Of a stretch of DNA of 64,000 bases, positions 1 through 45,284 are shown one piece after another. The stretch is taken from NCBI GenBank assembly GCA_041690595.1, contig JAWLHB010000005.1, positions 62,001-126,000 of the forward strand, read 5' to 3'. This DNA is from Lentisphaeria bacterium. GTDB taxonomy: Bacteria > Verrucomicrobiota > Lentisphaeria > JABSQK01 > JAWLHB01. The notes under the pieces are model-generated. The model searched no databases. It saw nothing but the letters and a program-made list of their open reading frames with translations, and was not told the origin of the DNA. Position 1 is the first letter of the stretch; every line of letters starts with the position of its first letter. Both the position numbers and the translations under genes were made by a program.

Positions 1-1
1 G

Positions 2-28649: not shown

Positions 28650-28682
28650 CATTTCTTTCACCGCCGGGCATCCGATTGGCGG
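28650..28682 (-). promoter_or_regulatory. Conserved motif CCGCCA-N14-GGTGAAAGAAATG, copy 3 (replication operon)
   Basis: Immediately downstream of the sigma gene; matches copies 1-2. Confidence 0.75.
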
Positions 28683-28701
28683 GAATGACGGCTCGTTCCG
28701 C

Positions 28702-29292
28702 TCATCGCCAGTCGTCATATCCGGCCTCACGGAAAGCCTGCCGAATCGGCACGATCACGCGGTCGTAGAAGGTCTTGCGGGGGATGCCCTCGGTGCGCGC
28801 CAGATCGCTGATGGAGCGTCCCTCCATGATCCCGCTGCAGCAGGTGCGCAGGCATTCGGGAAGGCGACCGACCACGGCATGCACATCCATGCGCAGGATG
28901 GTCTCGTCGTGCCGTGACCGGTTGCGGCGGCCGAGGTGGATGTCGATCTCGTCGGCACCCAGCAGGTCCTGTAGCGTGCCGGTTTCCCCGTCGGTCTCAT
29001 TGCGATGTCGCGCGTCGAGGGATTCGGCGTCCCGGTGACAGCGGCGCTTCTGCCGGGACCGGTCGCGCAGAATGCGCCTGGATTTCCCATCAACCACGAG
29101 CTGGATGAAGGTGGTGAGCTTGCCGCGCCGGGCGTTGTAGAGGGGCAGATGCTCGAGCAGGTCGAGCGTGAGTTCGGAGATGACGTCTTCGAGATTGGCC
29201 GGACCGAGCCCGGACTTGCCGATCATGTTCTGCGCGGTTACTTCGATGTTCGTGCGTGCATACTCTGTGAATCCGGGATGGTTGGCATCCAT
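28702..29292 (-). CDS. Phage-encoded sigma-70/ECF-like sigma factor
   Basis: Region-2-like EDVISELTLDLL...YNARRGKLTTFI; SLD; region-4 HTH LPECLR...GRSISDLARTEGIPRKT. Confidence 0.8.
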   Translation of the reverse strand: MDANHPGFTEYARTNIEVTAQNMIGKSGLGPANLEDVISELTLDLLEHLPLYNARRGKLTTFIQLVVDGKSRRILRDRSRQKRRCHRDAESLDARHRNETDGETGTLQDLLGADEIDIHLGRRNRSRHDETILRMDVHAVVGRLPECLRTCCSGIMEGRSISDLARTEGIPRKTFYDRVIVPIRQAFREAGYDDWR

Positions 29293-29353
29293 TGGGGAGC
29301 CTCCTTGTCGGGCCAGGAGGCGGAGGGGGGACGGATGCCGACCGAATGCGGGC

Positions 29354-29420
29354 AAAATGAAAGCGGAGGGAACCGCAGGGACGCCGTTGTTTCGGCGGCA
29401 CCTACGACTCCCTCCGCTTC
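29354..29420 (-). terminator. Long GC hairpin with U-rich tail upstream of the sigma gene (terminator/attenuator)
   Basis: AAGCGGAGGGAGUCGUAGG...CCUGCGGUUCCCUCCGCUU followed by UCAUUUU on the minus strand. Confidence 0.6.
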
Positions 29421-29526
29421 GCGGCTGGGGTTGATAATCGTCCGATACCTGAATGGTCGCTTACTTGTGGCGGGAGCCTACCCCGTGGTCAGGCGTGGTT
29501 GTCCTCTTCGGCTGTGCCGTTTCCGG

Positions 29527-29958
29527 CTATGCGTTGGTGGTCTCGTTCCCGTTGCTGTCGAGCTTCTCTTTCTTGATCTCCACCCACAGCTCGCGCTGCC
29601 GGTTCCAGTCCGGGACGCGGGTCAACGGCTCGATGTACTTCTGGCTGATCGGGAAACGCCTGCCGTCGGTCTTGGGGAAAAACAGGATCTCTTCCTGGAT
29701 ATCGGGTGCGAGCATGATCAGGTCCATGATCTGGGTCATCCGCGGTCGGGTCACCTGTTCCCGACGGGCGAGTGTCGCCATGTCGCGCACCTCTCCCTGA
29801 CGCAGCATCTCGTCGTAGGTGATGGCCAGCGCCATGAGTCGGCTCAGGCGCGGGATGCGCCCCTTCGGCCGCTTGGGGGGCTTTCCCCGGCGCAGGTGGT
29901 TGTGAAACTTGCGGCCACGCTTGAAGTGGACGCTCCTGGTGACGGTGTACGGTTTCAT
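29527..29958 (-). CDS. Recombinase-associated HTH-like protein
   Basis: RIPRLSRLMALA...LARREQVTRPRMTQIMDL..LAPDIQEEIL. Confidence 0.75.
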   Translation of the reverse strand: MKPYTVTRSVHFKRGRKFHNHLRRGKPPKRPKGRIPRLSRLMALAITYDEMLRQGEVRDMATLARREQVTRPRMTQIMDLIMLAPDIQEEILFFPKTDGRRFPISQKYIEPLTRVPDWNRQRELWVEIKKEKLDSNGNETTNA

Positions 29959-29963
29959 GGCGT

Positions 29964-31511
29964 CTATGCCTCCTTGGCAGCGCGCTCTTCGTTGAGCGCC
30001 TTGATTCCGTTGGGATGAAAGGTGATGGACACGGTGCCTTCATTGGCATCGTACTCGACCCGCTCGATGACGAGCATGAGCAGACGCCATTGTTCCTTGC
30101 TGGTGAGGGTGTCCCACACGGGGTTGAACTCCCGGCAGGCGGTCGTGATCTCGTTCTCCGTCAGAATGCCCTCGCGCAGGTTCTCCAGTTCGTCGGATGC
30201 CGTCTCGAAGTCGCGGGTGGTGGCGTCGATGCGTTCGTGCAGCGCGGCCAAGTGGGACGTCGAGGTCGGCAGGTTGGCGCTCAGGGACAGGGATTCCATC
30301 TCCTTCTTCGTCGCGTCCAGGTCCTGGCGCAGAAGGCGGCAATGCTTGTCCTTCTCGACGATCTCCGCCGCCCGGACCCGCTGGCTTTCCTCGACCACCC
30401 GGCGGACCAGTTCCTCGTCGCGACCGACGGCGCGAATCTCGTCGATCACGAAGCTCTCTATCTCGTTGGCGGGCAGTGACGGCTGCGGACATTTGGCCCA
30501 GCCGCGTCTCTGGGCATGGGTGCAGACGTAGTAGCGGTACCGCCGGTTGTTGCTGACCGAGTAGCTGTGGATCATGCGTGTCCCGCACGCCTTGCACCAG
30601 AGCAGGTGGCTGAGCATGGACCCGGAGCGGTTGCGCAGTTCGCCGCCGCAGCGTCTGTTCCGGGCGAGCAGGCGCTGCACTTGTGCGAACGTATCCTCGT
30701 CGACGACGGGCTCGTGCTGGCCGGGATAGACCTTCCCGTGGTGGCGCACCTTGCCGAGGTAGATGGGGTTGGTCAGCAAATTGTGCAGCGAGGTCTTCAT
30801 GAACGGTTTGCCCTGGTGGACCTTCCCCGAGCGGGTGACCCAAGTCTTGTTGGTCCAGCCCCGGCTGTCGAGTTCGTCGAGCACCTTGCGCAGTGTGCCG
30901 AGTTCGAGGTACATGGCGAAGATGCGGCGGACGTGATCCGCCTCGGTGGGGTTGACGCGGATCTTCCCGCCCTGCGGCACCACGTCGTATCCGAGAACCG
31001 GGGAACCGCCCGACCACTTGCCCTGCTTGCGCGCCATGTGAATCTTGTCGCGCGTGCGTTCGGAGATGACCTCCCGCTCGAACTGCGCGAACGAAAGCAG
31101 GATGTTCAGCGTCAGCCGCCCCATGCTGTTGGCGGAGTTGAAGCTCTGGGTGACCGAGACGAAGGCGACGCTGTGTTCTTCGAATACACCCATGATTCTC
31201 GCGAAGTCGAGCAGAGAACGGGAGAGGCGGTCGACTTTGTAGACGACCACGCAATCGATCTCTCTCGCTTCGATGCGTTTCAGCAGGCGTTGGAGCGCGG
31301 GCCGGTCGACATTGCCGCCGGTGTAGCCGCCGTCATCGTAGCGGTCGATGAGGCATTCCCATCCCTCGCCGACTTGGCTGGCGATGAAGTTCTCGCCTGC
31401 CAGGCGCTGGGCATCGAGCGAGTTTAATTCCTGGTCCAGTCCTTCATCCGTGCTCTTGCGCGTGTAGATCGCGCAGCGCACGGGCTTCTGTGCGTCAGTC
31501 GTTGTTGCCAT
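29964..31511 (-). CDS. Large serine recombinase
   Basis: CAIYTRKS, DDGG, RPALQRL, YKVDRLSR; recombinase domain NPIYLG; Zn ribbon CKAC...C...C; coiled coil. Confidence 0.93.
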   Translation of the reverse strand: MATTTDAQKPVRCAIYTRKSTDEGLDQELNSLDAQRLAGENFIASQVGEGWECLIDRYDDGGYTGGNVDRPALQRLLKRIEAREIDCVVVYKVDRLSRSLLDFARIMGVFEEHSVAFVSVTQSFNSANSMGRLTLNILLSFAQFEREVISERTRDKIHMARKQGKWSGGSPVLGYDVVPQGGKIRVNPTEADHVRRIFAMYLELGTLRKVLDELDSRGWTNKTWVTRSGKVHQGKPFMKTSLHNLLTNPIYLGKVRHHGKVYPGQHEPVVDEDTFAQVQRLLARNRRCGGELRNRSGSMLSHLLWCKACGTRMIHSYSVSNNRRYRYYVCTHAQRRGWAKCPQPSLPANEIESFVIDEIRAVGRDEELVRRVVEESQRVRAAEIVEKDKHCRLLRQDLDATKKEMESLSLSANLPTSTSHLAALHERIDATTRDFETASDELENLREGILTENEITTACREFNPVWDTLTSKEQWRLLMLVIERVEYDANEGTVSITFHPNGIKALNEERAAKEA

Positions 31512-32010
31512 TATCAGTGCTCCTCTTCTTGCTCCTGAGTCCGAAAAACGCGCGGCCATTCCAGTGCGAGCCGGTCACGGCCTTGGCCACTCCGGAGAGG
31601 GAGCCGTACAAATCGCCTTCCCAGCGGACCCCGTTCTCGACGATCTCCGCCAGGATCAGCCGCCCCTTGTAGACGCGCTCGAGTTTCGTGCCCGGCAGAA
31701 TGTCCGTCTCGTGATCGAGGATGGCGGCGGGTGCCGGTCGGGTGACGACTTCCCCGTCTCCGCGCGGCGGCAGTTTGGGTGCGGTCAGGCGGACATCCGA
31801 GTCCCTGGCCAGCTCGATGGCCCGCTGCCGGGCGCGGTAGGAGATACCCCCGCGGGCATTCGCCTGCATGCGCCAGATGATCCGCTTGATGAGGTAGGGC
31901 TTATGCTTGGTGGTGTTGGTCTCGTGAAAGACCTGCTCGTACCGCTCCTGCAGCTCGGGGATGGTCATCCCCTGCAGGTCGGCCAGTTCGCGTTCGACAT
32001 CGATTCGCAT
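31495..32010 (-). CDS. DUF2924 domain protein
   Basis: L.ERY..VF...LIKRIIWRMQ...PGT.L.RVYKG...SLS.VAKAVTGSHWNG.AFFGL. Confidence 0.88.
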   Translation of the reverse strand: MRIDVERELADLQGMTIPELQERYEQVFHETNTTKHKPYLIKRIIWRMQANARGGISYRARQRAIELARDSDVRLTAPKLPPRGDGEVVTRPAPAAILDHETDILPGTKLERVYKGRLILAEIVENGVRWEGDLYGSLSGVAKAVTGSHWNGRAFFGLRSKKRSTDNGNND

Positions 32011-32037
32011 GGTTGTCCTCCGTTGGTTTGGAACTCG

Positions 32038-32235
32038 TTACCGGACAACCACATGAGTCGCTGAAGAGGGCGAAAGCTCAAGTCGTTCTCTCCCGGAATC
32101 CGAGAGTTTTTCCGACCTTTCTCGAAGTGCCCCCGGACGACGCGCGAGACGGACGATGGCGGAAGAGAAAAGGCGGACGATTTCCTCGCGCCGCTCTTCG
32201 GCGGAAGACGGGACCGGATCGGTCAGATACGACAT
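32038..32235 (-). CDS. Small hypothetical protein
   Basis: MSYLTDPVPSSAEERREEIVRLFSSAIVRL; AAGGAG RBS. Confidence 0.55.
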   Translation of the reverse strand: MSYLTDPVPSSAEERREEIVRLFSSAIVRLARRPGALRERSEKLSDSGRERLELSPSSATHVVVR

Positions 32236-32347
32236 GGCAGAACTCCTTGGTCGGGCGTTGCCGCCTACGGAATCCTGCGCTTCGCGCCGGGAATGCCGTC
32301 CGACGAATGGCTGGCGTCGAGGTGACGCGCTCTGTATGGCTCTGTTT

Positions 32348-32379
32348 ATTTTCTTCACCGTCACACTCCGGGTTGGCGG
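32348..32379 (-). promoter_or_regulatory. Variant motif CCGCCA-N14-GGTGAAGAAAAT, copy 4 (recombinase operon)
   Basis: Same hexamers and 14-nt spacer. Confidence 0.65.
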
Positions 32380-32409
32380 AAAAGCGGGGGCATTTCGGGG
32401 AGAATCCGT

Positions 32410-32757
32410 CTACCGCGAAGCCGCCCGGCGGTTATCGACCACTTCCAAGTGGCGGGGCAGTCCCGCCGTGACGATGAGCGAACAGACCGTGCCGTCGCCG
32501 ACGCGACGGAGGTGGTCGAACAGGTCGACAATTTCCCGCTTGAGTTCGGTGTCCGCCTGCACGAGTTCGCGGCGCGGGCTGTTGTCGCCGCCCCCGAGCT
32601 TGATCTTGCGGATCACGCGGGTGTCGTCGGTGAATACGGGTTCGCCATCCCGGACGAGCAGGTTTTCGATGCAGGCGTGATTGACCTCCTGCATGACCTC
32701 GACGAGATGGCGTTTCGGGGAGGAGAGCTGTGACTTGCGGATCGGGCTGGCCTTCAT
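32410..32757 (-). CDS. Hypothetical phage protein
   Basis: 115 aa; KSQLS...LVEVMQ.VN...IENL.VRDGEPVF; GGAGG RBS. Confidence 0.75.
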   Translation of the reverse strand: MKASPIRKSQLSSPKRHLVEVMQEVNHACIENLLVRDGEPVFTDDTRVIRKIKLGGGDNSPRRELVQADTELKREIVDLFDHLRRVGDGTVCSLIVTAGLPRHLEVVDNRRAASR

Positions 32758-32831
32758 GGCGTTGCCTCCCTGGCAGATTCGGTTGACCGTCTGCGCCGTC
32801 GCACCGTGCTTCGGCGTCTGCCTGGGGGGAG

Positions 32832-32946
32832 GATTTCACGAAAGACCGAGCCGTCCTGAGAAGAAAAGCGCAACCGCCGCATTTGCAGACGGTTGCGCTT
32901 TGCGATTTCACTTTGCCGATTTCACGAAAGACCGACAAGTGAAATT
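32832..32946. promoter_or_regulatory. Operator-like repeats flanking a hairpin
   Basis: GATTTCACGAAAGACCGA at 32832-32849 and 32918-32935; further GATTTCAC and inverted GTGAAAT; hairpin 32865-32901. Confidence 0.6.
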
Positions 32947-32950
32947 CGGG

Positions 32951-33865
32951 CTATCCCCGGTACTCCATAATCTGCCGGGGATTGTGGACGATCTGCCAGA
33001 GCCATTGCAGCTCGCGGTCGTCGTCTTTCAGGGCGCGATAGACAGAGGCGGGACTGGTCCCGATGAGACCGGCGAGCTGCTTCTGCTGCACCGGGGGCAG
33101 GTTGTCCTCCCAGTGACGGGACAGGAGGCTCTTGCGCGACAGGATTTCCTCGTGCAGGGCTTTCTTAAGCAGGTCGATGGCCGCCGCCCGGGGGGCGCGC
33201 TTCTTCGGCGGTGCCGGAGCGGGTTCGGTCGCTGCAACCACGCTCTCGACCTGGCCCGTGACCGCGTTGGCGTCGAAGCGAAGCCCGCCATCCTCGAGCG
33301 TGGCCAGGTGACGCACCTCGAAGACCCGGTCAGGGTCGAGCGCCGGTGGTGTTCGAGGCGTGACGCCCATGATGAACAGAACCGAAACGCCGTCCGTCGG
33401 CAGGCTCGGGTTGAGATCCTCGGTCACGCGACGCGCCAGCCACAGCGTCCGCGATTGGCGCGCGATGGCGGCGCGCCCCAGGTTCCACAGCCGGTTGGGC
33501 ACGACCTCCTGCGCCCCTCCCGTACAGGCAAACGTGTCGCCCAGCAGGGAAGCCACACGAGCATAGTCCGGCACCCATTGACGAAGCCGGTCCGGGTGGA
33601 TCGGGACGCGACCGCACTCGGGACACATGATGAACATCCGAGTGCGCCCGTCGGGATAGCTGAAGCGAAACACCTCTCCCACGGTGCCGAGGTCACACCC
33701 GTCGCATTCGGCCGACCTGGCGGTTCGCGTCGGTTTGAGAAGCCCCGCATCGATCAAGGCTTCCCGGACGGACTTCGGGAAACGCATCACGTCGTCGTGC
33801 GTGAGGACCGGGCTGTCGAGTTGCGCCAGGTCCCAGAACAATTGGAGTGCGTCAGGCTGCTTCAA
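32951..33865 (-). CDS. Zn-ribbon plus C-terminal HTH protein
   Basis: CDGC...CPEC; C-terminal QKQLAGLIGTSPASVYRAL. Confidence 0.7.
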   Translation of the reverse strand: MKQPDALQLFWDLAQLDSPVLTHDDVMRFPKSVREALIDAGLLKPTRTARSAECDGCDLGTVGEVFRFSYPDGRTRMFIMCPECGRVPIHPDRLRQWVPDYARVASLLGDTFACTGGAQEVVPNRLWNLGRAAIARQSRTLWLARRVTEDLNPSLPTDGVSVLFIMGVTPRTPPALDPDRVFEVRHLATLEDGGLRFDANAVTGQVESVVAATEPAPAPPKKRAPRAAAIDLLKKALHEEILSRKSLLSRHWEDNLPPVQQKQLAGLIGTSPASVYRALKDDDRELQWLWQIVHNPRQIMEYRG

Positions 33866-35021
33866 TGCCCCACCTCCTCAGGTATTTCTCGCCCAGTTCG
33901 CGGAGACGCTCGGGCTTGCTCTTCAGGCTGCAGGTGCGCGGACTGATGTCGAAGGTCAGCGACTTCGAACGCCCGTAGCCTTCCAGTTCCATGCAGATCC
34001 GCGCCTTTTGAACGCGCAGCAGCGTGATCGGCAGTTTCTCGTGGTTCAGGTCGTTCTCCAGGGCCACATAGATGTCCTCGGGATTGCCTTCCAGGGGCAA
34101 CTGCACGGTGATCTTCTTCTTGGGATTGCCCATGGGCGACACGCACAGCAGGCGGATGGCCACCTGCGTGATCCCGTCCTCGGGATCGGTCTCGAAGCCG
34201 AAGGCGCGGTCCGTGAGCCCGTCCAACCGGTGGGGACACTCGTCCGGGTCTTCCGGTTCGAGAGCGATATCCAGCACAGCCTTGGCGAACAGTTCCTCCA
34301 ATGGCTCCACGATCTTGCGGCCGCCCTGCGCGTACACGTCCATGGTGCCGACCTCGCGGTCGTAGACGAACACGACCTCGAACGCGTGGCACCGCTTGAT
34401 CCGCTGCCAGTTGCCTTCCTCGTCCCAGATAATCTCCGTGTCCGGGTGATCGCTCAGATACACGAAGAAGTAGTCCAGGTGGGCATTGCGCCGCAGGTGA
34501 TCGATCCGGCAGAGCTGGCCCCGCCCCTGTGCCTGCCAATAGAAGGCTGAGATGTCGGTCTGCAGCCCCTGGATCACCAGGGGCGACAGGTCCGGCGCTT
34601 TCTTGGGCAGGCCGTTGCGCTTGTGCCAGGACCGGCTCTGCAGCGTTTCTGCGTGGGCCAGGACGGCTGCCTTGTCCCACACTGCCGTGTGGTTCAGTAG
34701 CATCCAGGCCGCCTTGTCATATCGGCTGTCGAGGCGGTCGAGGTCCACGACCACGTCGAGACCATTGAACACGGCCTCCTCGATCAGGATGCGGATGCCA
34801 CTCTCGACCTGGGCCACGGTGTGAATATCCTGCAGCTCGACTTCGAAGTCGCGGCGGGCGGTCTCCGGCAGGTTCAGGAAGGCGTCATAGATGTCCTGAA
34901 CCTGACGCGGTCCGAGGTCCTCCCAGTCCGCGTCGACGGTGTGCCCGTGGTGCTCGAAGAGGTCCTTCAGCATCGTGTTGCTGATCTGCCGCAGGACGGT
35001 TTTCGGGTTGTACTGCTTCAT
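33852..35021 (-). CDS. Uncharacterised ~389-aa protein
   Basis: Long ORF with AAGGAG RBS, overlapping the next gene. Confidence 0.75.
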   Translation of the reverse strand: MKQYNPKTVLRQISNTMLKDLFEHHGHTVDADWEDLGPRQVQDIYDAFLNLPETARRDFEVELQDIHTVAQVESGIRILIEEAVFNGLDVVVDLDRLDSRYDKAAWMLLNHTAVWDKAAVLAHAETLQSRSWHKRNGLPKKAPDLSPLVIQGLQTDISAFYWQAQGRGQLCRIDHLRRNAHLDYFFVYLSDHPDTEIIWDEEGNWQRIKRCHAFEVVFVYDREVGTMDVYAQGGRKIVEPLEELFAKAVLDIALEPEDPDECPHRLDGLTDRAFGFETDPEDGITQVAIRLLCVSPMGNPKKKITVQLPLEGNPEDIYVALENDLNHEKLPITLLRVQKARICMELEGYGRSKSLTFDISPRTCSLKSKPERLRELGEKYLRRWGIEAA

Positions 35022-35104
35022 CTGTCTGTCACTCCTTGGATTGTCCCTGTTCAATAAACGCTAAACGGTGCTGCGCAAAAAAAGAGAGGTACGCTTCGCC
35101 CCCT

Positions 35105-35806
35105 TCAGAAGATCCCTCCATGCTGTGGCGGTTCGGTGTCCAGCAGCTTCAGACCCACCAGCCGTATCTGCATTGCCTGTGCCGAGACATTGAAGTACCG
35201 GGCCATTCGCTTGGCCGCTTCGCAGCTCGGGTCGAGTTCGTCGTCTGTCAGCCCGTACACGCCGCGCAGTTCGCAGATTTCCTCATGCACATTGAGCGCG
35301 CCGTCGTCACTGCCCAGTTCCTGCCACGCTTCACGGATCATGTGTTCGGGCATCAGCAGGAACCCGGCAAAGCTGTCCGCCTGCCATTCGCGCGGCTCCT
35401 TGGACTGCGATGACCGGCAGACGATGGGCGGAGGGGGTTCCCCGAGGTCGAAAAGTGTCAGTTGCTTCCGCTCGGTCAGGATCTGTGGAACGTGCAGCAC
35501 CCAGTGTCCCACTTCGTGGGCGACGGTGAAACGGTAGCGCCCCTCCCGCTGCGGGTTCTCCTCCGGGTCCAGGGACATATCGAAAACGACGCTGCCCTTG
35601 TCGATGAACGACGCGCCCAGCACATCGTCGGAGCCGAAGCGGGCGGACAGGTCGTCGAAATCCATCGCCAGGTCGAGCTGACACTCGAGGATCTCCTCGA
35701 CCGGGATGGGCGGTATGGCGATCCTGCCGTAACTCTCACCGTAGTCGGCCAGAACCTTGTACGCCGCGCGCTCGATGCGCTGGATGGGAATGAAGTCGCG
35801 CTTCAT
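35105..35806 (-). CDS. ImmA/IrrE family metallopeptidase (anti-repressor)
   Basis: RYRFTVAHEVGHW (HExxH); EWQADSFAGFLLMP; FNVSAQAM.IRL. Confidence 0.92.
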   Translation of the reverse strand: MKRDFIPIQRIERAAYKVLADYGESYGRIAIPPIPVEEILECQLDLAMDFDDLSARFGSDDVLGASFIDKGSVVFDMSLDPEENPQREGRYRFTVAHEVGHWVLHVPQILTERKQLTLFDLGEPPPPIVCRSSQSKEPREWQADSFAGFLLMPEHMIREAWQELGSDDGALNVHEEICELRGVYGLTDDELDPSCEAAKRMARYFNVSAQAMQIRLVGLKLLDTEPPQHGGIF

Positions 35807-36189
35807 GACTGCCGGTCATCCTCCTCGGACTCCACCTCCCGCCGAAGGCGCTCGGTCAGTTCCTGCAGTTTCTCGGCGGACATGCCGCGCGTGGTACGAA
35901 GGAAATCGGCCATGGCCACAGGCCGTTCCCGGATGATCTCCGTCAGCTCCGGGTCCACCTTCTCGGCGATAGCCAGCAGCTCGTCGGCATCGATCTCCAG
36001 CAGCTCGGCCATGCGGATGATCTTGTCGGCGGCGGGCGGATCGAACTCGCCCGTCTCGATCTTGCTCAGGAACGTCGGACTGATCCCCACCGCCTTGGCG
36101 AACTTGCGCAGCGAGAAATTCGGGTCGGTGCGTTTCCGCGCCTCCCGCAGATCCCGTATTCGCTGTCCGAAGACCGGGTTGCCTGACAT
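35803..36189 (-). CDS. XRE-family HTH repressor (ImmR-like)
   Basis: FGQRIRDLR...SLRKFAKAVGISPTFLSKIETG; ATGA overlap with the ImmA-like gene. Confidence 0.92.
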   Translation of the reverse strand: MSGNPVFGQRIRDLREARKRTDPNFSLRKFAKAVGISPTFLSKIETGEFDPPAADKIIRMAELLEIDADELLAIAEKVDPELTEIIRERPVAMADFLRTTRGMSAEKLQELTERLRREVESEEDDRQS

Positions 36190-36716: not shown

Positions 36717-37076
36717 ATGTTTCACCATCACCCGCACCCGCCGCCACATCACGGGGCACCGCCCCCTCCGCCCCACCATGCGCCTCACGAAGGGCCTCCT
36801 CCGCCCCCCCACTTCGTTCACCATGAGCACAACGGCCTGACGGAGGACGAACTGTGCGTTCTGGAGGGGCTGATCGATGCACCTGAGGTGATCCGCTCGT
36901 TCTCGCGGATTTTCGCCTATGCTCCGCCGGAAATCGGCGCGGTGCTGACCGCCGTGCTCCACTCGCATCGTCTGTTGGCTGAGAAGTGCGACAGGATCGA
37001 GTCACTTATCATGTCGACCAGCTTGGAGCCGGAGGGCAAAGCAGCGCAAGACCCGGAAGGAGGCATTGACCAGTGA
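36717..37076 (+). CDS. His/Pro-rich protein
   Basis: 13 His and 15 Pro in the first 38 aa, then a helical domain; GGAG RBS. Confidence 0.75.
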   Translation: MFHHHPHPPPHHGAPPPPPHHAPHEGPPPPPHFVHHEHNGLTEDELCVLEGLIDAPEVIRSFSRIFAYAPPEIGAVLTAVLHSHRLLAEKCDRIESLIMSTSLEPEGKAAQDPEGGIDQ

Positions 37077-37681
37077 TCTCGTTGTCGCCACACATTGCAG
37101 AGCTCGGGCCACTTACGGTCATCGCCACTATCAGTGATGCGCAGACCAAGAGTGGCAGGGCCACTGCAGGCGTCGGGGACGCGCTCCCCGTGGCACCTGC
37201 CACGGGGAGCGACTGCGGGGAGCGGATTCGCCAGATTCTCCGCACCGCAGTCACACAGCTTCCCGACTACCAGACTAAAACCTGTATCGTGTTTCCGGGG
37301 CCTGAGCTCGTCTTCCTCGAGGCCCTCGCGGACCTCTCCTTCCCTGGCCACGTACTGATGGTGCTGGACGGAGCTTTGGATGGGGCAACGGTTGAGCGCA
37401 TTCGGCGCAACGTCCCCCAACGGCTGGATGTGTCGGTCCACCAGCTGCCTTACGTCCCGGACTCTCTGAGTGTGACCGGTACCGTCTTCGCTGTTCCTGG
37501 TTTTGAGTGCGGTTCGGGGTATGTCCTCGTCACCAAAACCGCTGTCCGAACTCTTGGGTTGTGCCGGAGCTTCTACTTCGGCGACATTGCCTTTGTGGAT
37601 GGTGTGGGGGAACGCGTCTACGGGCGCCCGGCGACCGAGAACTGGGCCTTAGTGCCCAAGCGAACAGTATTCAATTGCTGA
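37073..37681 (+). CDS. Hypothetical alpha/beta protein
   Basis: 202 aa; GTGA overlap with the upstream stop. Confidence 0.7.
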   Translation: MISLSPHIAELGPLTVIATISDAQTKSGRATAGVGDALPVAPATGSDCGERIRQILRTAVTQLPDYQTKTCIVFPGPELVFLEALADLSFPGHVLMVLDGALDGATVERIRRNVPQRLDVSVHQLPYVPDSLSVTGTVFAVPGFECGSGYVLVTKTAVRTLGLCRSFYFGDIAFVDGVGERVYGRPATENWALVPKRTVFNC

Positions 37682-37688
37682 TTGAGGA

Positions 37689-39062
37689 ATGAGCACAATG
37701 GACGCATCACCCACCATCTACCCCGCCGCTGAGAACTCCCTCGTGTCGCGCTGCATGCTTGGCCTGAAGCAGAGCGACATTCCCTTCCTGATGATTGCCC
37801 TGGTAGGCGTCATCGCCGCACTGCTTTCGCTGGCTGGCGTGACGAACTTGACGGCAGCCATGGGCCACTACCAATGGGGCGTGTTGTGCTTCTTCATCGC
37901 ACTCGACATGTTCACAGCATTGGTTGTCGGAACCGGCGTGCTCGACAAGGTGGCTGTCGTTATTGCGGACCGATCACAGGGCAGGCCGGGCCTGGTGATG
38001 TTGTTGTTCTCTTCGATGTTATTCATCGTCTCGTCATTCCTGAACAACCTGACCGCTGTACTGGTTGTTCTCCCCGTAATCTTCGTGCTTATGGGGGCAC
38101 TCCGTCTTCCTCGCACTTACGTCGTGTCTTTCCTCTCGCTGCTACTTGCCATCTCAAACCTTGCAGGTGCGAGTACGCCTATCGGCGATTTCCCTGCGTT
38201 GATAATCATGAAATCCGGGCTGACAACATTTCAGGATTACCTTGTGCGGGCATTTCCCCTGTTCGCATTCACTGCCGCCATCGTGATAGGCCTTCACCTG
38301 GCGCTTCACAGGGCACGGAATCACAAATCCGAAACGGGAGATCAAGACGGTGAAACATGTGTTTCTCTCGCACTGCTCGAGGCGAAATACCGTTACCGTC
38401 GAGTCAACATCCGAGTCCTCTCGAGAATCGCTGTCGTGTTTGTCGCCATGTTCTTGGGATGGGCCACCGTCCCTGCGGACGTGGTTCCCCCCGAATTGAC
38501 CGCTGTTCTTGGACTCGGACTGGCAGTGACGGTAACCGGTAAGGACTTCGGAGCCGTCTATCGCCGTTTCGACATGAAACCTGTATTGACAGTGGCGATC
38601 ATGCTTTTTGTTGCCTCAATCATCCAGGAGTGCGGGGTGCTTGAGCATCTTGCGGCGCAGCTTCAAGCGAGAATCGACAACCCGGTGCATCTCTTGTGTG
38701 CCGTCATGGTGATGACTGCAATCTGCAGTGGGCTGTTCTCGGCCGGCCCCGCAGCAGCAGCGATGATGCCCCTCATTCTCGCGCTCGGGGCTCCCGGGGC
38801 GGGGCCGCTTGCAGACCACAGTGAATGGCTTGCGGTTGGGTTTGCTGCTGCCATCTGTGCGGGGTCTAGCCTGTTCGTCTGGTCGGCAACCGCCGGATTC
38901 CCGATGTCCATGAAGGTTAGTGATGCCCGGCTCGTCGACCATGAAGGTCGCCCTGTGAGCTGGGGCATTTCGGAATACCTCCGATTCGGAGTGCTTCACT
39001 CGCTGCTACAGCTCGCAATCGGCATGGCCTGGGTATTGGCGGCCATCTCAATGCAGGGATAG
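37689..39062 (+). CDS. IT-superfamily permease (ArsB/NhaD/SLC13-like)
   Basis: Multiple TM helices; SSFLNNLTAV...SNLAGASTPIGDFP. Confidence 0.85.
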   Translation: MSTMDASPTIYPAAENSLVSRCMLGLKQSDIPFLMIALVGVIAALLSLAGVTNLTAAMGHYQWGVLCFFIALDMFTALVVGTGVLDKVAVVIADRSQGRPGLVMLLFSSMLFIVSSFLNNLTAVLVVLPVIFVLMGALRLPRTYVVSFLSLLLAISNLAGASTPIGDFPALIIMKSGLTTFQDYLVRAFPLFAFTAAIVIGLHLALHRARNHKSETGDQDGETCVSLALLEAKYRYRRVNIRVLSRIAVVFVAMFLGWATVPADVVPPELTAVLGLGLAVTVTGKDFGAVYRRFDMKPVLTVAIMLFVASIIQECGVLEHLAAQLQARIDNPVHLLCAVMVMTAICSGLFSAGPAAAAMMPLILALGAPGAGPLADHSEWLAVGFAAAICAGSSLFVWSATAGFPMSMKVSDARLVDHEGRPVSWGISEYLRFGVLHSLLQLAIGMAWVLAAISMQG

Positions 39063-39072
39063 GGAGAGAGCA

Positions 39073-40878
39073 ATGAACAGCTTGTCAATCATCTGGAATG
39101 TATTCAAGCGTCTAAGGACGCATGCGCCGCAATATTGGAGGAGGCGACTGCTGTTGGTGACCCTTCTCATGATCGTTGTTGCCGCCCTTACAAGCGCGCC
39201 CCCTTTGATCGTGGGACGAATCGTGGACATGTTGTCAAGAAACGGAGCCATTCAACACACCCACCTAACCCTCCTTCTGGCGGCACTCATGGTCAGCGTA
39301 TTGCTGCGGGAGTGCCTGCAAGCGACTCGCAAGCTACTCGTAGAAGACACTGCGACGAGAATGGAAAAGAACATCCGGCATGAGGTGTCCACACACCTGC
39401 TTAAGCTGCCATTGGGCTACTATCGCCAGCACTTGGTCGGTGAGCTTCAGGGCCGACTTAACAGGGGTATAGAGGGGGCTATAAGGCTTGTCAAACTCGC
39501 GTTCCTTGATCTGCTGCCCGCCGTCGCCGTCGCCATAGCGGCGTTGATTGCTGTGTTCGCGGGAAGCCCTATGATCGCTTTTGCCATGGTCCTCGTGATT
39601 CCCATCAGCATGGTGATTGTACATCGCCAAGTCAGCAGTCAACGGGGCCTTCGTGAGGCACTTAGGACCCGAAAGGAGGAAATTGACGGGAAGGTTGTGG
39701 AGCTTTTGGGCGGGTTGGAGACGGTCAGGGCGATGCACACCGAGGATTTCGAGAGCGCACGCATCGAGACAGTCGCGGAGGATCTCCGAAGGACCGAGAT
39801 TAGACACCATCGATGGATGGCCTTCTATGATGCCCTCAAGTCCGTGAACGAGGGAGTCTTTCTCGCTGCGGTGATCGGCCTCGTTGTGTGGTTGGTACTT
39901 CGTGGGAGCGCTTCTGTTGGACAGGTATTGGCCGCAACGATGCTCTTCCAGCGGATTCTCGAGCCACTGCGGGAAGTGCACCGGATCTATGATGAGGCGA
40001 GCGAGGCGTGCGTAAATGCTGAGGGGCTTCTGGACATAGAAGAAGCTCCCATGGACGCCAGCTACCTCACCCAGCCTATGGCCATCAACTTCTCGGAATC
40101 TGCTGCAGCGATTGAGCTGGAGAACGTGGACTTCTGCTACACGAACGGAAGTACACAGGTGCTAGCCTTGCGCGGAGCCTCTATCAAGGTCCGTGAGGGG
40201 GAGTTCATCGGGATATGTGGCCCGACTGCATCAGGAAAATCGACCATTCTCAAGCTTCTTCTCCGACTCATTGCCCCTCTAAGCGGCCGCATCCTGGTTC
40301 AGGGACAGAATCTCGACTGCATCGACCGGTCGACACTCGCAGCTACGGTTGGTTACGTCCCCCAGGCCCCGTTCCTGTTCAGCGGCACGATTGCTGACAA
40401 CATCACCTATGGCGTACCTTCGGTTTCGATGGAGCGTGTTGTCGAGGCGGCGAAACGGGCTCATCTTCACCATGAGGTCGATTCCATGGAGAATGGCTAC
40501 GACACGCAAGTCAGTGAGCGAGGGGAAAATCTGTCTGGCGGGCAGCGACAGCGCATAGCCATTGCCCGAGTCTTCCTTCGTGATCCAGCCATTCTGTTGC
40601 TGGACGAAGCAATGTCAGCCCTGGACAACATCAGTGAGAATTCTGTGCAGATGGCGCTTGAGGAACTCATGCATGGGCGCACGGTCATCTCCGTTGCCCA
40701 TAGACTGTCCTCGTTGCGCAATGCCGACAGAATCGTTGTGGTGGACAATGGACAGATCGTTCAAGAAGGTGAGTTCGATGAGCTGGAATCGTGTGAAGGC
40801 CTGTTTGCCAATCTCCTATCTCATGGCAGCGGTTCTCCTGTCCCGACTCACGTTCAGCCCGTGCAGGTAGTGGCGTGA
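39073..40878 (+). CDS. ABC exporter, fused permease/ATPase
   Basis: TM domain; GPTASGKST, LSGGQRQR, LLLDEA, AHRLS. Confidence 0.92.
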   Translation: MNSLSIIWNVFKRLRTHAPQYWRRRLLLVTLLMIVVAALTSAPPLIVGRIVDMLSRNGAIQHTHLTLLLAALMVSVLLRECLQATRKLLVEDTATRMEKNIRHEVSTHLLKLPLGYYRQHLVGELQGRLNRGIEGAIRLVKLAFLDLLPAVAVAIAALIAVFAGSPMIAFAMVLVIPISMVIVHRQVSSQRGLREALRTRKEEIDGKVVELLGGLETVRAMHTEDFESARIETVAEDLRRTEIRHHRWMAFYDALKSVNEGVFLAAVIGLVVWLVLRGSASVGQVLAATMLFQRILEPLREVHRIYDEASEACVNAEGLLDIEEAPMDASYLTQPMAINFSESAAAIELENVDFCYTNGSTQVLALRGASIKVREGEFIGICGPTASGKSTILKLLLRLIAPLSGRILVQGQNLDCIDRSTLAATVGYVPQAPFLFSGTIADNITYGVPSVSMERVVEAAKRAHLHHEVDSMENGYDTQVSERGENLSGGQRQRIAIARVFLRDPAILLLDEAMSALDNISENSVQMALEELMHGRTVISVAHRLSSLRNADRIVVVDNGQIVQEGEFDELESCEGLFANLLSHGSGSPVPTHVQPVQVVA

Positions 40879-40954
40879 GCACTCAGACAACGAGTTCGTG
40901 TGGTTGCTGCTCCACATGGTTGATCATCCATTGTGACCGGCATGCTGGGTGCTA

Positions 40955-41453
40955 TTCAGCCGGGGCACGCTTCGGCAACGCCGGAATGCGGTGGGGCCGG
41001 GTTTTGCCGCTTTTCCGGTCGAATTGGGCATAGAGAATGGTGAACGGCATCACGGGGAGCGTGGCATGCTCGTGCGTGGAGGGCTCCGCCGCCGGGAAGA
41101 TGCGGGGGCGTCAGAAGCCAGCGTTAACCAGACGGCGGGCGGGATGGGTGGAATGCTGCGAACCGCTGATTCTTGGGGGGAGAGAGCCGAGAATAGAGTT
41201 TTCCGGGCCGTGGACGGCAAGAGAAAACCGAGAGTCCGGGCCAGCGACGGCGGTTCCAGGGCGGGGGTGCGCCATGAACGGGCAGGCAGATAGAGTGCCG
41301 AGACGCTCACCATCGGCCGCCGGAAGTTCGTCGCCAGAGTCACAAATCCCTTTGAGTCAACGGGATTTGTGAGCCCGAAAACAAAACAGCCCCCGCGAAC
41401 GGGGGCCGTAAACGAAAAGGCCCCGATGATTCGGGGCCGAAAAGGAATGGCTC
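40955..41453. repeat. ~500-bp element-end sequence, copy A
   Basis: Diverged direct repeat of 44716-45214 (offset 3761 at both ends); ends in AAAGGAATGGCTC. Confidence 0.9.
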
Positions 41454-41504
41454 AAAACACCGCTGACATTACTTGTGCGAAGTAGTGAACAGTCGGTTAA
41501 CGGC

Positions 41505-42866
41505 TCAATCGGCCGAGGTGCGGTCGATCTGGCCTCCGGTGATGGGCAATCGGGGATCGCAGCGGGGTTCCGCAAGGAGCTGCCTGATGGCGGCCTCGGA
41601 GAACTCGACACGGATGGTGTCGCGGCTGAACACGACCCGCTCGACGACGCTGCCGATGGCGTGATAAGGGTCGGGCACGCTCAGCCAATCGATGAGCCAC
41701 GCGACAGCCGTCAGGGCTTGACGTGACTCCGCCGTGAGCCCCGGCTCGTCTTCGGGCCCATCCGGATCGCGCATTGTGTCGAGGACGAACTTGTGTAGTT
41801 CGGCAGCGGGCACGCTGACGTTCTTACAGGGCGGGCGACCGCCAGCGTGAGAGCGACATCGGTAATGCATGTAGCGGATGTGCTTGTTGTGGCGATTGCA
41901 GATGACGTGCGGGCTCATCACTCGACCGCAGGCGGCGCAGAAGACTTTGCCCTTGAGCGGCAGGTCGTGGTCGTGGCGCTCCCGGGTCGCCGGGCGGCGT
42001 GAGTCGATCAGCGACTGGACGTCATCAAAGCGCTCAGGTTTGACGATTGCCCGGTGACGACCGGGACGGCGGCCGCCTTTTCCGTCGCGCTGGAACCCGG
42101 CGTACACCGGATTGCGCAGCAGCTCGAGGATCTGGCGGGCCGTCCACGGTTTACCACCAAGGGACTTGCCCGTGCTCCGGGAGACGTAGACCTTGGTGGT
42201 CCAGCCTCGCTTGTTGGCATACTCGGCGATCTGGCGCGGGGTCTGGCCGACCGCGGCCAACTGAAACAGCTTCCTTACCTTGCGGGCTTCGCCGTCATTC
42301 ACGACCAGCTCCTTGCCGTACTCCGGGAGGTCGTAGCCGAGCGGCGGTTTGCCGCTGAGCCGCTGGCCACGTCTGCGACGGCCTCGCACACTCTCCTTGA
42401 TGCGCTCGGAGATCAGGCCGTGCTCAAACTCCGCGAACGAGGCTAGGATGTTCAGCATGAAGTGGCTGGTCGCCGACGCCGCAAGCGACGGTGCGGTCAC
42501 GATCTTGAGATCGACCGCGTGACGCTTGAACGCGTCGAGAATCTGAACAGTGTCCGCCAACCGACGTGAGAGCCGGTCGAGACGGTAGACGATGACGTGT
42601 GAGATCGTTCCCTTCTCGATCTCGGCAAGCAGCGCCTGCAAGGCGGGACGTTCGAGATCTTCACCTGACTGTCCGGGATCGTCGTAGCGCGTGCCACACC
42701 AGGGGATGGCGCGCGGGAAGATCGCTTCGGCATGGTCGCGGCAGATCTGGAACTGGACGTCGCACGACGACAGCGTGATGTCATTGCGAACGCGCGACTG
42801 CCGGGTGTAGATGGCATACGCGAAGATGACTGAGGGCGAGTCAGCTGTGCCTGCGGAAGTGGCCAT
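41505..42866 (-). CDS. Large serine recombinase (compact)
   Basis: YAIYTRQS, RPALQ, YRLDRLSR, NPVYAG, CAAC...C...C. Confidence 0.9.
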   Translation of the reverse strand: MATSAGTADSPSVIFAYAIYTRQSRVRNDITLSSCDVQFQICRDHAEAIFPRAIPWCGTRYDDPGQSGEDLERPALQALLAEIEKGTISHVIVYRLDRLSRRLADTVQILDAFKRHAVDLKIVTAPSLAASATSHFMLNILASFAEFEHGLISERIKESVRGRRRRGQRLSGKPPLGYDLPEYGKELVVNDGEARKVRKLFQLAAVGQTPRQIAEYANKRGWTTKVYVSRSTGKSLGGKPWTARQILELLRNPVYAGFQRDGKGGRRPGRHRAIVKPERFDDVQSLIDSRRPATRERHDHDLPLKGKVFCAACGRVMSPHVICNRHNKHIRYMHYRCRSHAGGRPPCKNVSVPAAELHKFVLDTMRDPDGPEDEPGLTAESRQALTAVAWLIDWLSVPDPYHAIGSVVERVVFSRDTIRVEFSEAAIRQLLAEPRCDPRLPITGGQIDRTSAD

Positions 42867-42869
42867 GGC

Positions 42870-43835
42870 TTACTTGCCACTTCGATGGCGTTGCACGTTC
42901 AGAGCCTTCCACCGCAGAAGTGGGTGCTCCTGTATTCGCGCAGCCATCTCCGTATCGTCGGTCAGCAGGCTGGGCACGATCTCACCGTCGTCGAGAAGGC
43001 GATCCAGGAATTCGGCTTCCTCGGGCGTGAACTGCACCAAACTGGCCAAGCGTTCCCGGCAGGTCTCGGCCATCTGCTCCGCCCAACCAGACTGCAGAGA
43101 TTCCCGGACGGCGCTGCTCAAAACCGGCAGAAGATGGTTCTCCAACTCGCGAGGATCGCATCCCACGTCGTCCAGCGAAATGGTCCGCCAGTCTCGCCGG
43201 TTCATGGCCCCGTAGAGGATGAAGGCAAACCGCAATCGGTCGGGGGCGAGTTCTGCAGTGGTCAGGAGTCCGTGTGCATCGAACAGATCACGGCTGGCCT
43301 GGCGGGCGAACAGCGCCGCCAGTTTCCCCGCCGCCAGTTCATGCAGGTCGAGGACGGGGATGCCGCTGGCGGAGTATGTGCCCACGTCCACCGAATCCAT
43401 TGTTGTCACGGGCCACAGCGGGACGCGGAACATGAAGTTCAGGTCGACCTCCAGGTTACCGCTGCCACCGAGAGCGCTGCCGTAACGGAGACGCCATTTG
43501 CCGCCAGCATGGTCACTCGGAACACGCGTCACGGACAGTTCCTCGCGCTGGCAGGCGAGTTGGACCGCGCGTTCGACCTTGCCACGGTCGGAAAGCATCT
43601 CCTCCCGACCAGCCGCGCCGACGTAGTTCAGATCGATATCGACCGACAGGCGCGGCAGGTCGAAGCAGAACAGGTTGAGCGCCGTACCTCCTTTCAGCGC
43701 CAAGCGTCCGCCAAGCGCCGGATGCCGCTGGAACACGGTCAGGAGATTCAGTAGGTGGATGACTTTCTCCAGCACCTCCGGGCGGAAGCCGGTCGTCTCG
43801 GACTCAGCCATCAGACGTTCGCGTGAGAGCCTCAT
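42870..43835 (-). CDS. abiEii: AbiEii nucleotidyltransferase toxin (type IV TA)
   Basis: LKGGTALN...RLSVDIDL; KLAAL..R...RDLFD. Confidence 0.92.
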   Translation of the reverse strand: MRLSRERLMAESETTGFRPEVLEKVIHLLNLLTVFQRHPALGGRLALKGGTALNLFCFDLPRLSVDIDLNYVGAAGREEMLSDRGKVERAVQLACQREELSVTRVPSDHAGGKWRLRYGSALGGSGNLEVDLNFMFRVPLWPVTTMDSVDVGTYSASGIPVLDLHELAAGKLAALFARQASRDLFDAHGLLTTAELAPDRLRFAFILYGAMNRRDWRTISLDDVGCDPRELENHLLPVLSSAVRESLQSGWAEQMAETCRERLASLVQFTPEEAEFLDRLLDDGEIVPSLLTDDTEMAARIQEHPLLRWKALNVQRHRSGK

Positions 43836-44632
43836 ATCTCGGTCTCCCAGGCCCGGTTCAGCACCTGCTCCGGCACGATCAGGTTCCAATCGGCGACCAG
43901 GCGACCGGGTGCGCTTCGATCCATGTAGTGAGGCTGGCGCGAACGGGCTTTTCGCAGCCTGTCGAGTTGGCTGTCCTCCACCATCAACTGCTCCTGGTGC
44001 TGGTCGAGAAAGAAGCCGACCTTCGCGGCGGTCGTGGCATTCCGCAGGAGCAACGCATAGTCCACCACCTGCCGGATGTCGTAGTACTCGACTGATTCGG
44101 CGGAACGCCAGATCTCCTCCCAACCGCCCCCGAAGTCCGGGCGGTCGAGAACGTCGACCAGCGACCTTTCGAGCGATGCGACATGTATGTCTTGCCCAAG
44201 CCGGTCAACCGTCTCGATGCCGAACTGCTCCTGTTCCGTCTCCCGTATTGCCTTCGGCGGGGAGACGCGACGGAAGCTGCAGCCTCGGAACTCCTTGGCC
44301 CGCACGGGCTGGCTACTGACGAACACGTACTCGCTGGACACCGTGTATGCGCGTCCGTGGAGCTGGAACGCCGAGTGGTAGGCGATAGCGGCATCGTCAG
44401 TCAGTTTTGCGGCGACCAGCCACGGGTCGGGCACGAAGAAAGCCGGATTGCTTCCGGCGGGCACGCTGGCGTAGAGACCCCGTTGGATCTGGATCACGTG
44501 CCCGGCACGGACATGATGGGCCAGACGCGCGTTGGCGGTGTTCTGATCCGTCGAGTGGCTCGCTCGCAGTGCCGCCTCCAACTCATCCCGCGTGAAAACG
44601 GGGTGTTTCGCCAGAAATGTGCGTATGTCCAT
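43832..44632 (-). CDS. abiEi: AbiEi antitoxin/transcriptional regulator
   Basis: N-terminal wHTH (VFT..EL...IQRGLY); AYHSAFQLHG; LERSLVDVLDRP..GGG.EE; ATGA overlap with the toxin. Confidence 0.88.
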   Translation of the reverse strand: MDIRTFLAKHPVFTRDELEAALRASHSTDQNTANARLAHHVRAGHVIQIQRGLYASVPAGSNPAFFVPDPWLVAAKLTDDAAIAYHSAFQLHGRAYTVSSEYVFVSSQPVRAKEFRGCSFRRVSPPKAIRETEQEQFGIETVDRLGQDIHVASLERSLVDVLDRPDFGGGWEEIWRSAESVEYYDIRQVVDYALLLRNATTAAKVGFFLDQHQEQLMVEDSQLDRLRKARSRQPHYMDRSAPGRLVADWNLIVPEQVLNRAWETEI

Positions 44633-44644
44633 GGTGCAGCCCTG

Positions 44645-44705
44645 ACTTGATGATCTCTGCGTCAAGTGTGAGATACCTTAACACTTGAAGCGATAGGCAT
44701 CAAGT
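44645..44705. promoter_or_regulatory. Two 23-bp palindromic operators ACTTGA-N11-TCAAGT
   Basis: 44645-44667 and 44683-44705, directly upstream of abiEi. Confidence 0.75.
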
Positions 44706-44715
44706 CGAATTGCCG

Positions 44716-45208
44716 TTCAGCCGAGGCACGCTTCGGCAACGCCGGAATGCGGTGGAGCTGGTTTTTGCCACTTTTCCGGTCGAACACGGCATAGAGAATG
44801 GTGAACGGCGTTGCGGGCCACCTGTCGTGCTCGTGCGTGGCGGTCTCCGCCATCGGGATGATGCGGGGGCGTCAGAAGCCAGCGTTAAGCAAACTGCGGG
44901 CGCGATGGGCGGAATCGGGCGATCCGCTGATTCTTGGGGGGAGAGAGCCGAGGATAGAGTTTTCCGGGCCGTAGAAACGGAGAGTCAGTCGAGAGTCCGA
45001 GCCAGAGACGGCGGTTCCAGGGCGGGGATGCGCCTTGGACGGGCAGGCAGATAGAGTGCCGATGCGGTCACCGTTGGCCGTCCGAGCTTCGTCGCCGGAG
45101 TCGCAAAGCTCTTTGGCTGAGCGGGATTTGCGGCGGAGAAAAGGAAACGGCCCGCCGTTGGGCGGGCCGTTAAGTGAAGGCTCCATATATTCCGTAAAGA
45201 AAAGGAAA

Positions 45209-45214
<6 letters not shown>
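44716..45214. repeat. ~500-bp element-end sequence, copy B
   Basis: Homologous to 40955-41453; abuts the tRNA 3' end. Confidence 0.9.
45138..45171 (-). terminator. Terminator downstream of tRNA-Asn
   Basis: AACGGCCCGCC-GTTG-GGCGGGCCGTT hairpin, U-rich on the minus strand. Confidence 0.6.

Positions 45215-45284
<70 letters not shown>

Follow-up and report, generated by a model that had tools for sequence, protein, structure and literature searches.

Tandem serine-recombinase elements behind tRNA-Asn in a Lentisphaeria bacterium: a minimal AbiE-recombinase element, a prophage and a long shared end

Behind the tRNA-Asn gene of a Lentisphaeria bacterium (assembly GCA_041690595.1) lie three elements in head-to-tail order: a mini-element of 3,761 bp (element 1), an 88.4-kb prophage (element 2, 88,371 bp) and a decayed second mini-element (element 3). 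We analyzed a 64,000-nucleotide stretch of contig JAWLHB010000005.1 (the window) together with the rest of the assembly; coordinates refer to the window, except that G000:C5 numbers count along the contig of the organism's own assembly. The array is genuine, its limits are well defined and known principles account for most of it; what is new in detail is the minimal AbiE-recombinase element together with the long end that the elements share. Comparison of the junctions makes it very likely that the elements accreted at a short core in the tRNA 3′ end through serine recombinases, with the end as attachment arm. The full account, in which the stacked elements share a non-coding end, joined to the tRNA at the core by a large serine recombinase, and in which the other parts of the explanation below also hold, we consider probable.

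The array and its junctions

The features that delimit the array within the window are the following.
45209..45284, minus strand: tRNA-Asn(GTT), the target gene, whose 3′ end supplies the core GAGCCA
45207..45214, minus strand: core GAGCCATT at the tRNA-side junction, with the presumed crossover inside it
44711..45214, minus strand: copy 2 of the non-coding end, start of the mini-element
41446..41453, minus strand: core GAGCCATT at the junction of mini-element and prophage
40950..41453, minus strand: copy 1 of the end, start of the 88.4-kb prophage, with hairpins at 41419-41438 and 41385-41409 and the palindrome IR3 at 41342-41370

Aligned without gaps (40950-41454 against 44711-45215), copies 1 and 2 have equal bases at 401 of 505 positions; BLAST gives 81.5% identity, and the local alignment score is 537, with a maximum of 30 among 200 shuffles. 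The offset is 3761 bp at both extremities, since a deletion of one base is compensated by an insertion of one base, and the alignment bears out the diverged direct repeats with this one offset that an earlier note on the stretch had described. Both copies finish in AAAGGAA(A)TGGCTC, in which TGGCTC is the reverse complement of GAGCCA at the tRNA 3′ end, as that note had also read. In the orientation of the tRNA, the terminal sequence GAGCCATT overlaps the tRNA-Asn 3′ end, and this core is present at every junction of the array.

A search of the organism's own genome found a third copy (copy 0, G000:C5:14579-15083), 88,371 bp to the left of copy 1 and with the same core at its end. The prophage runs left past the window, where the note had proposed to look for its left attachment site, to its far arm and copy 0 of the end at G000:C5:15083. 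The three copies are mutually 79-85% identical, and the array is therefore not an assembly duplication. They are also mosaic, copy 0 being nearer to copy 1 proximally and nearer to copy 2 distally. No further copy was found in the 8.1-Mb assembly by BLAST (word size 7) or nhmmer (with a hidden Markov model of 21 ends). Rather than being scattered over the genome, all three copies sit in the array at tRNA-Asn (45209-45284), the sole tRNA-Asn gene that ARAGORN found in the assembly. The successive integration of serine-recombinase elements sharing a long cis-acting end, as proposed earlier, is thus supported, with three elements instead of two.

Other genomes and contigs contain the same kind of junction. 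GAGCCA lies 83-85 nt upstream in 25 of 27 palindrome-bearing ends (the 27 come from the loci examined and include duplicate rows, 22 being distinct), after tRNA-Asn in 11 of them and after a non-tRNA arm in 14, and at least five arm types switch to unrelated sequence exactly at GAGCCA. From these 25 junctions we infer a crossover core, GAGCCATT, of 7-8 bp.

The mini-element, the prophage and the remnants

Read from the tRNA, element 1 consists of the end, abiEi, abiEii, a large serine recombinase gene, a 52-bp far arm and the core.
44644..44706, no strand: nested inverted repeats GACTTGATG...CATCAAGTC and TCAAGTGT...ACACTTGA, upstream of abiEi and outside the shared end
43832..44632, minus strand: abiEi antitoxin, 266 amino acids (Pfam AbiEi_4; PADLOC AbiEi 3e-103)
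42870..43835, minus strand: abiEii nucleotidyltransferase toxin, 321 amino acids (Pfam AbiEii; PADLOC 2e-108)
41505..42866, minus strand: large serine recombinase, 453 amino acids (PF00239, PF07508, PF13408), an open frame
41454..41504, minus strand: far (P) arm, with GTTCACTA at 41483-41490 and a second GTTAACCG at 41494-41501

The adjacent abiEi and abiEii (DUF1814 nucleotidyltransferase) genes identify an AbiE system by both Pfam and PADLOC. abiEii overlaps the abiEi stop by 4 bp, and the recombinase starts 3 bp past the abiEii stop. Ahead of abiEi, the nested inverted repeats (9 bp and 8 bp), of which the outer pair is kept in copy 0, are repeats of the kind found at AbiE promoters and are likely the AbiEi operator, a prediction by analogy with the published system, in which AbiE stabilises plasmids and AbiEi binds promoter inverted repeats (PMC3985639). 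Apart from abiEi, abiEii and the recombinase, the 3761 bp contain no gene for replication, no primase, terminase or capsid-related gene (Pfam, open reading frames), no relaxase (Pfam) and no DUF2924, the single DUF2924 gene of the genome being in the prophage. An oriT of unrecognised type, as an integrative mobilisable element would need, may nevertheless be present. The earlier note had suggested a satellite or minimal defence element; the AbiE genes fit defence or addiction, and the satellite half gained no positive support.

The recombinases of the mini-element and the prophage both have a resolvase catalytic domain, a recombinase domain and a zinc ribbon (PF00239, PF07508, PF13408), and the YTRQS and RLDRLSR motifs of the mini-element enzyme align to the TP901-1 integrase. 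In a FastTree phylogeny (midpoint root, 95 sequences, 356 columns, taking in 15 of 120 listed homologues), the mini-element enzyme groups with those of loci L051, L092 and L096 and with homologues whose labels are Planctomycetes, Phycisphaerales, Acidobacteria and Acidimicrobiia; this clade (support 1.0) is separate from the DUF2924-linked enzymes. The closest recombinases among titled relatives are from a Victivallales genome and Oligosphaera ethanolica. The mini-element and prophage enzymes are about 36% identical, which together with the separate clade rules out that the mini-element is a deletion derivative of the prophage. The relationship between the two elements that the note had raised is thus seen in the similar end; it does not extend to descent from the prophage, and the far arms differ as well.

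The mini-element recombinase stops 52 bp from the core, which places the integrase next to the attachment (att) end, as in phage-inducible chromosomal islands (PICI). In the far arm, GTTCACTA is at offset -36, the same offset as GTTAACCA of the tRNA anticodon loop. This motif was found post hoc. The word is at the tRNA's own -36 offset in 4 of 4 mini-element far arms, with a match at 8 of 8 positions in G035, L092 and L096 (the G035 and L092 arms are one type) and 6 of 8 in this mini-element, compared with 0-4 of 8 in six other arm sequences. A mirror word of the motif occurs at +40/41 in the conserved end (TTAAC motif at +41). The word could serve as a distal recognition site or be left over from a tRNA.

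Element 2 begins on the tRNA side with the end, transporter cargo, regulators, DUF2924, the recombinase, a gene for a 143-amino-acid protein, and replication and lambda-like head and tail genes. Further left are type I restriction and ABC-three-component defence genes, the far arm and the core.
36717..40878, plus strand: cargo beside the end, including 119- and 202-amino-acid open reading frames, a CitMHS-family transporter and an ABC transporter
1..36189, minus strand: the part of the prophage inside the window, with tail, capsid, portal, terminase, helicase and regulators
29527..32010, minus strand: integration module, with DUF2924 (31495-32010), a large serine recombinase (29964-31511) and the 143-amino-acid gene (29527-29958)

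The 143-amino-acid protein, with a ParB-like helix-turn-helix, resembles the DNA-binding domains of ParB and Noc (profile E 3e-4; in Foldseek, E 0.04-0.2 and TM about 0.5). The predicted fold of DUF2924 includes a small helical domain like the T4 endonuclease VII C-terminus and the Rho N-terminus (Z 6.5-7.0) and a domain that resembles the C-terminus of CcrM as well as MPND (Z 5.5-6.0), which we take to be the domain named RAMA. The DUF2924 profile had no match among PDB sequences. DUF2924 is present in 45 of 151 class genomes and is known also from phages WO and AcaML1; the 3 papers listed for it in our literature search are all on Wolbachia. The prophage far arm recurs at 98% identity in L051, 96% in L087 and 80% in G067, each time finishing at the core and followed by different DNA.

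Several other observations concern the prophage. Its recombinase module is interior, more than 9 kb from the nearer prophage end (about 25 kb in G067), unlike other DUF2924 modules of the class, which are within about 1.5 kb of a tRNA. A defence cluster inside the prophage end (G000:C5:15290-40747; L004-L006) encodes type I restriction-modification, an ABC-three-component system, a PLD-domain protein and a Schlafen/Fic protein. About 57 kb of the interior (G000:C5:40845-98270) is inverted relative to G066:C30 (95.6% identical) and G067:C6. The right break is near window position 36270, no inverted repeat was found at the breaks, and this may be a real inversion or a misassembly.

Element 3 consists of the end, abiEi, an abiEii stump (about 33 codons), an unrelated gene, and a second abiEi type with another stump; its abiEi region has 90% nucleotide identity to element 1. 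A remnant of a fourth unit is at G000:C5:8690-9620 (L004), where a second AbiEi type lies with a shortened abiEii and a fragment like the distal G057-type end. Unrelated to the array, tandem repeats of 13 bp (GGACCGAGGTTTT) and GC-rich repeats of 66-78 bp form clusters in the window at 46023-46200 and 51804-53407, with assembly gaps.

Composition and distribution of the shared end

The end is non-coding: pN/pS is 0.65-1.38 across the six frames (six sequences), compared with 0.21 for abiEi. Its recognizable parts in copy 2 are:
45146..45171, minus strand: hairpin 2 with T tail, terminator-like and covarying, overlapping the TTAAC motif at +41
45103..45131, minus strand: IR3 palindrome CAAATCCCG-N11-GGGATTTG, a candidate protein-binding site, with one arm degenerate in this copy
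44791..45056, minus strand: CTCT(A/C)(T/C) boxes at +159, +231, +256, +268 and +419, at homologous offsets in three end subtypes

Structure is confined to the first 115 bases, where two covarying hairpins are followed by the conserved palindrome. Among 21 ends, two-sided changes occur in 6 of 8 pairs of hairpin 1 and 4 of 10 pairs of hairpin 2, and in 1 of 10 pairs of IR3, whose spacer is conserved; the shuffle control for covariation overstates the signal because the ends are related sequences. Both hairpins carry T tails, are terminator-like and lie within 70 nt of the core. Pairing in the consensus fold ends at column 113 of 323, with only 5 scattered pairs elsewhere. The earlier note had called for a covariation analysis for RNA structure, and covariation is confined to these two hairpins. 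The GAGAG-rich blocks and GC hairpins it had pointed out were both found; its inverted repeat is clear at 41341-41371, and the counterpart at 45103-45131 exists with a degenerate arm.

The palindrome score after the tRNA has a median of 7.1 at 11 other DUF2924-recombinase loci (those of 40 fetched with a tRNA or tmRNA within reach), compared with -0.7 in 71 control tRNA flanks (p=0.0016). On this comparison, the palindrome and CTCT boxes appear to recur modestly and weakly at the ends of other DUF2924-recombinase elements. The far arms of L047, L090 and L094 have CAGAGAGTTTT(C)CGG at -43. Its reverse complement is the CCGGAAAACTCT box of the conserved end, a hint that the two arms may share a binding motif. 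We also compared the arms for long terminal inverted repeats and rejected these: 12 of 14 far arms had no alignment above shuffles, and the other two aligned to a coding stretch about 250 bp from the core.

Within the class, the end was matched in 11 of 351 genomes, including this one. It directly follows tRNA-Asn in eight others (G009, G035, G057, G066, G067, G068, G070 and G090); the matches in G072 and G336 are short and unconfirmed as ends, with no tRNA in the G072 stretch fetched. The patchy distribution includes 93% identity in a genome outside the order. An exact-pattern scan added 11 metagenome contigs and 1 viral contig. A phylum-wide DNA search gave, beyond G035 and G057, only matches of 24-52 bp with E above 6e-5, and phage and plasmid collections had no significant match to the end. 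At 25 other tRNA-Asn loci inspected by eye (L012-L035, L037 and L036) the tRNA continues into unrelated sequence, although L013 and L033 are possible distant variants of the end.

The DNA behind the end varies and includes prophages (G067, G057), defence genes (G035, G057), TonB, Feo and methyltransferase cargo (G066, G009, G068) and mini-elements. In G067, an 85.5-kb prophage relative runs from tRNA-Asn to the 80%-identical far arm with the mini-element absent; the prophage and the 3.76-kb block are therefore not fixed to each other, in line with the earlier interpretation. A prophage relative is likewise at tRNA-Asn without a mini-element in G057, on the contig part fetched. G035 has the tRNA, the end, abiEi (72%), abiEii (86%), a recombinase cut after 69 codons by internal deletion, the same far arm, the core and the next end. 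Layouts of end-abiE-recombinase or recombinase-arm-core-end also occur in L051, L060, L092, L096 and L097, and the mini-elements carry three AbiE types in the one slot.

The orientation of G057 differs from that of the second element in G035. Distant genomes have cargo islands behind the end in common (L076-L077, L044, L047, L081), presumably with TonB/ExbBD, FeoB, metal-dependent regulators and pilin-like genes. At L051:7778-8230, the end is interrupted just past the core by a short insertion that contains a palindrome and a small open reading frame, and an insertion-sequence-like block, which we assume to be IS66, breaks a mini-element recombinase after 8 codons at L040:4216-5000.

Mechanism, alternatives and known systems

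In the mechanism that we propose, a circular element would recombine with tRNA-Asn at the core GAGCCATT; each element would bring a similar arm and so regenerate the site, allowing elements to accrete. The two hairpins would stop read-through transcription from the tRNA, and their T tails suggest that they are probably terminators. The palindrome and CTCT boxes may bind recombination accessory proteins, with DUF2924 and the ParB-like protein of the prophage as candidates, a role that we put forward tentatively. AbiEi would repress an abiEi-abiEii-recombinase operon, with control of the recombinase expected because its gene begins 3 bp past the abiEii stop, and cells that lose the element would be penalised by AbiEii. 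By its gene content, the mini-element is fairly likely to be a minimal self-integrating addiction or anti-phage cassette that moves between cells only with help; having no replication or transfer gene, it would need a helper, or joint excision with the prophage beside it, to spread. We think it unlikely, though worth stating, that the end is a family-wide recombination platform at which DUF2924 and ParB-like proteins bind the palindrome and boxes to switch or license excision, with mini-elements and recombinase-less islands borrowing these factors and travelling with the prophage as a new class of hitch-hikers that have the cis signal only, and with the mini-element recombinase reading the anticodon loop 36 bp from the crossover, mimicked by the far arm.

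A number of results weigh against this account. The left boundary of element 3 was not found, the distal 200 bases of the end are kept only within subtypes, and the DUF2924 fold matches are middling (Z 5.5-7). Ends are also kept in G035, G009, G068, G070 and G090, genomes in which no DUF2924 was found; the conservation in these may reflect recent inheritance or some other cause. The palindrome comparison gave p=0.063 in 7 exploratory loci; of the 11 loci, two are near-identical and several score at background. CTCT density was found in 3 of 11 loci (0 of 71 controls) by a pattern that was widened after the exploratory set was inspected, the box pair was found in 2 of 11 (1 of 71 controls), and AcaML1 has the box pair yet a palindrome score of -9.8. 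No excision circle, empty site or transcript was seen in sequencing runs that each contain at most 0.15 of the region's words and consist of contigs throughout. Four runs mapped at 80% likeness show relatives of the strain only. One 3766-bp skip (one contig, depth 3.3) was set aside as evidence of a circle, as a related end fits both copies.

The array could instead have formed by homologous recombination or duplication through the 500-bp end, as suggested by the mosaic copies and by L051, where internal end fragments have rearranged with one another. Nevertheless, GAGCCA is the exact point at which each junction passes into an unrelated arm, of which there are at least five types, and the copies' identity of 79-85% is low for efficient RecA exchange. 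Such recombination may explain the mosaicism and some deletions, not the junctions, and is very unlikely to have built the array. A phage satellite is somewhat less improbable, although still unlikely: the mini-element would use the long end as a packaging or replication signal read by a helper prophage, and mini-elements and islands would be encapsidated. An intact lambda-like prophage with terminase and portal adjoins the mini-element, the end is kept on elements without phage genes and is patchily distributed across orders, and its length and repeated boxes exceed the usual att arm of about 50 bp. The satellite reading is opposed by the absence of a primase, terminase or capsid-related gene from the mini-element, by the lack of a palindrome copy near the prophage terminase (strong scores are at the three ends only) and by the viral contig collection, which has neither a relative of the mini-element recombinase nor a match to the distal end motif.

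The end itself might be a structured non-coding RNA co-transcribed with tRNA-Asn. The covarying hairpins, the fold of copy 1 (z=-2.5) and a weak suhB/MmgR match (E=0.26) are in favour, but the fold of copy 2 has z=-1.45, the suhB match is below the gathering score with tRNA the sole Rfam family above threshold, the T-tailed hairpins read as terminators, and the palindrome tolerates mismatches while keeping its spacer sequence. With covariation restricted to two hairpins and a consensus fold that ends at column 113, RNA structure over the whole end is unsupported, and we give this explanation little credence. A small protein gene is the least credible reading. A 114-codon frame is open in copies 0, 1 and 2, beginning at the repeat edge, with third positions slightly more variable (21/25/36). 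pN/pS is at least 0.65 in every frame, however, the G009 copy has -1/+1 indels within the frame, there is no Pfam match, and the frame is missing from other end subtypes.

Accretion at the core by serine recombinases also has published parallels. The Dehalococcoides ssrA islands (DsiB; McMurdie et al. 2011, PMC3146451) likewise stand in tandem at the 3′ end of an RNA gene present in one copy, with a large serine recombinase (CcrB-like) and varied cargo, and recombinase-less members were read as cis-mobilisable. They use a tmRNA target and have a 20-bp repeat, a six-gene dsi module and about 85 bp conserved around each repeat, whereas in the array here the target is tRNA-Asn, the core measures 7-8 bp and the end 300-500 bp, and the members include a prophage and AbiE mini-elements of three genes. 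With another target, another repeat length and no dsi module, it is not a member of that class. The prophage resembles the Wolbachia phage WO/AcaML1 module in having a DUF2924 gene directly upstream of the recombinase among phage genes, where AcaML1 adds a "small subunit" and the prophage a small downstream gene. The module proteins are about 28-33% identical. The first 150 bases of Acidithiobacillus phage AcaML1 have a CCACCA core, a terminator-like hairpin and a CTCTCTG-TTCTCTG pair, without a palindrome by score. The mini-element has neither accessory gene, and its recombinase is outside the DUF2924 clade.

PICI and satellites are defined by their own replication genes and by packaging-redirection or capsid genes (in part after bioRxiv 10.1101/2020.12.28.424599). 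The mini-element has none of these, and the array is not of the PICI class. AbiE systems on integrative and conjugative elements (ICE) share with the mini-element the overlapping abiEi-abiEii genes, promoter inverted repeats and mobile-element location (PMC3985639, PMC11062541). AbiEi is reported to modulate ICE excision (PMC3985639, PMC11062541, bioRxiv 10.64898/2026.01.19.700257), and AbiE has been reclassified as type VII (bioRxiv 10.64898/2026.01.19.700257). Unlike the ICE-borne systems, AbiE is the only cargo of the mini-element, with the recombinase directly after it in one apparent operon and three AbiE types that swap in the slot. Prochlorococcus tycheposons and cryptic tRNA-targeting elements (bioRxiv 10.1101/2020.12.28.424599) are also stacked at tRNAs, with partial tRNA ends between them, nutrient or defence cargo and remnants, and accretion of ICE and of integrative and cis mobilizable elements (IME, CIME; PMC5704250) follows the same principle. 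The tycheposon-type elements have mostly tyrosine integrases (910 of 937; bioRxiv 10.1101/2020.12.28.424599), enzymes also described at tRNAs elsewhere (PMC11476347). Tycheposons and ICE carry replication, packaging or conjugation genes, which the mini-element does not, and the accessible descriptions mention no long shared end. Our literature search found no description of this end or of AbiE-recombinase mini-elements; one may exist in closed-access papers or supplements, for example in large catalogues of recombinases.

The array is a complete serine-recombinase accretion array with exact junctions, from a little-studied bacterial class. It defines a minimal element whose sole cargo is an exchangeable AbiE pair, apparently co-transcribed with the recombinase. 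The long conserved end is a concrete candidate DNA target for DUF2924 and its ParB-like partner, uncharacterised companions of such recombinases, and a recombinase that targets a tRNA end and whose site regenerates itself could serve repeated genome insertion.

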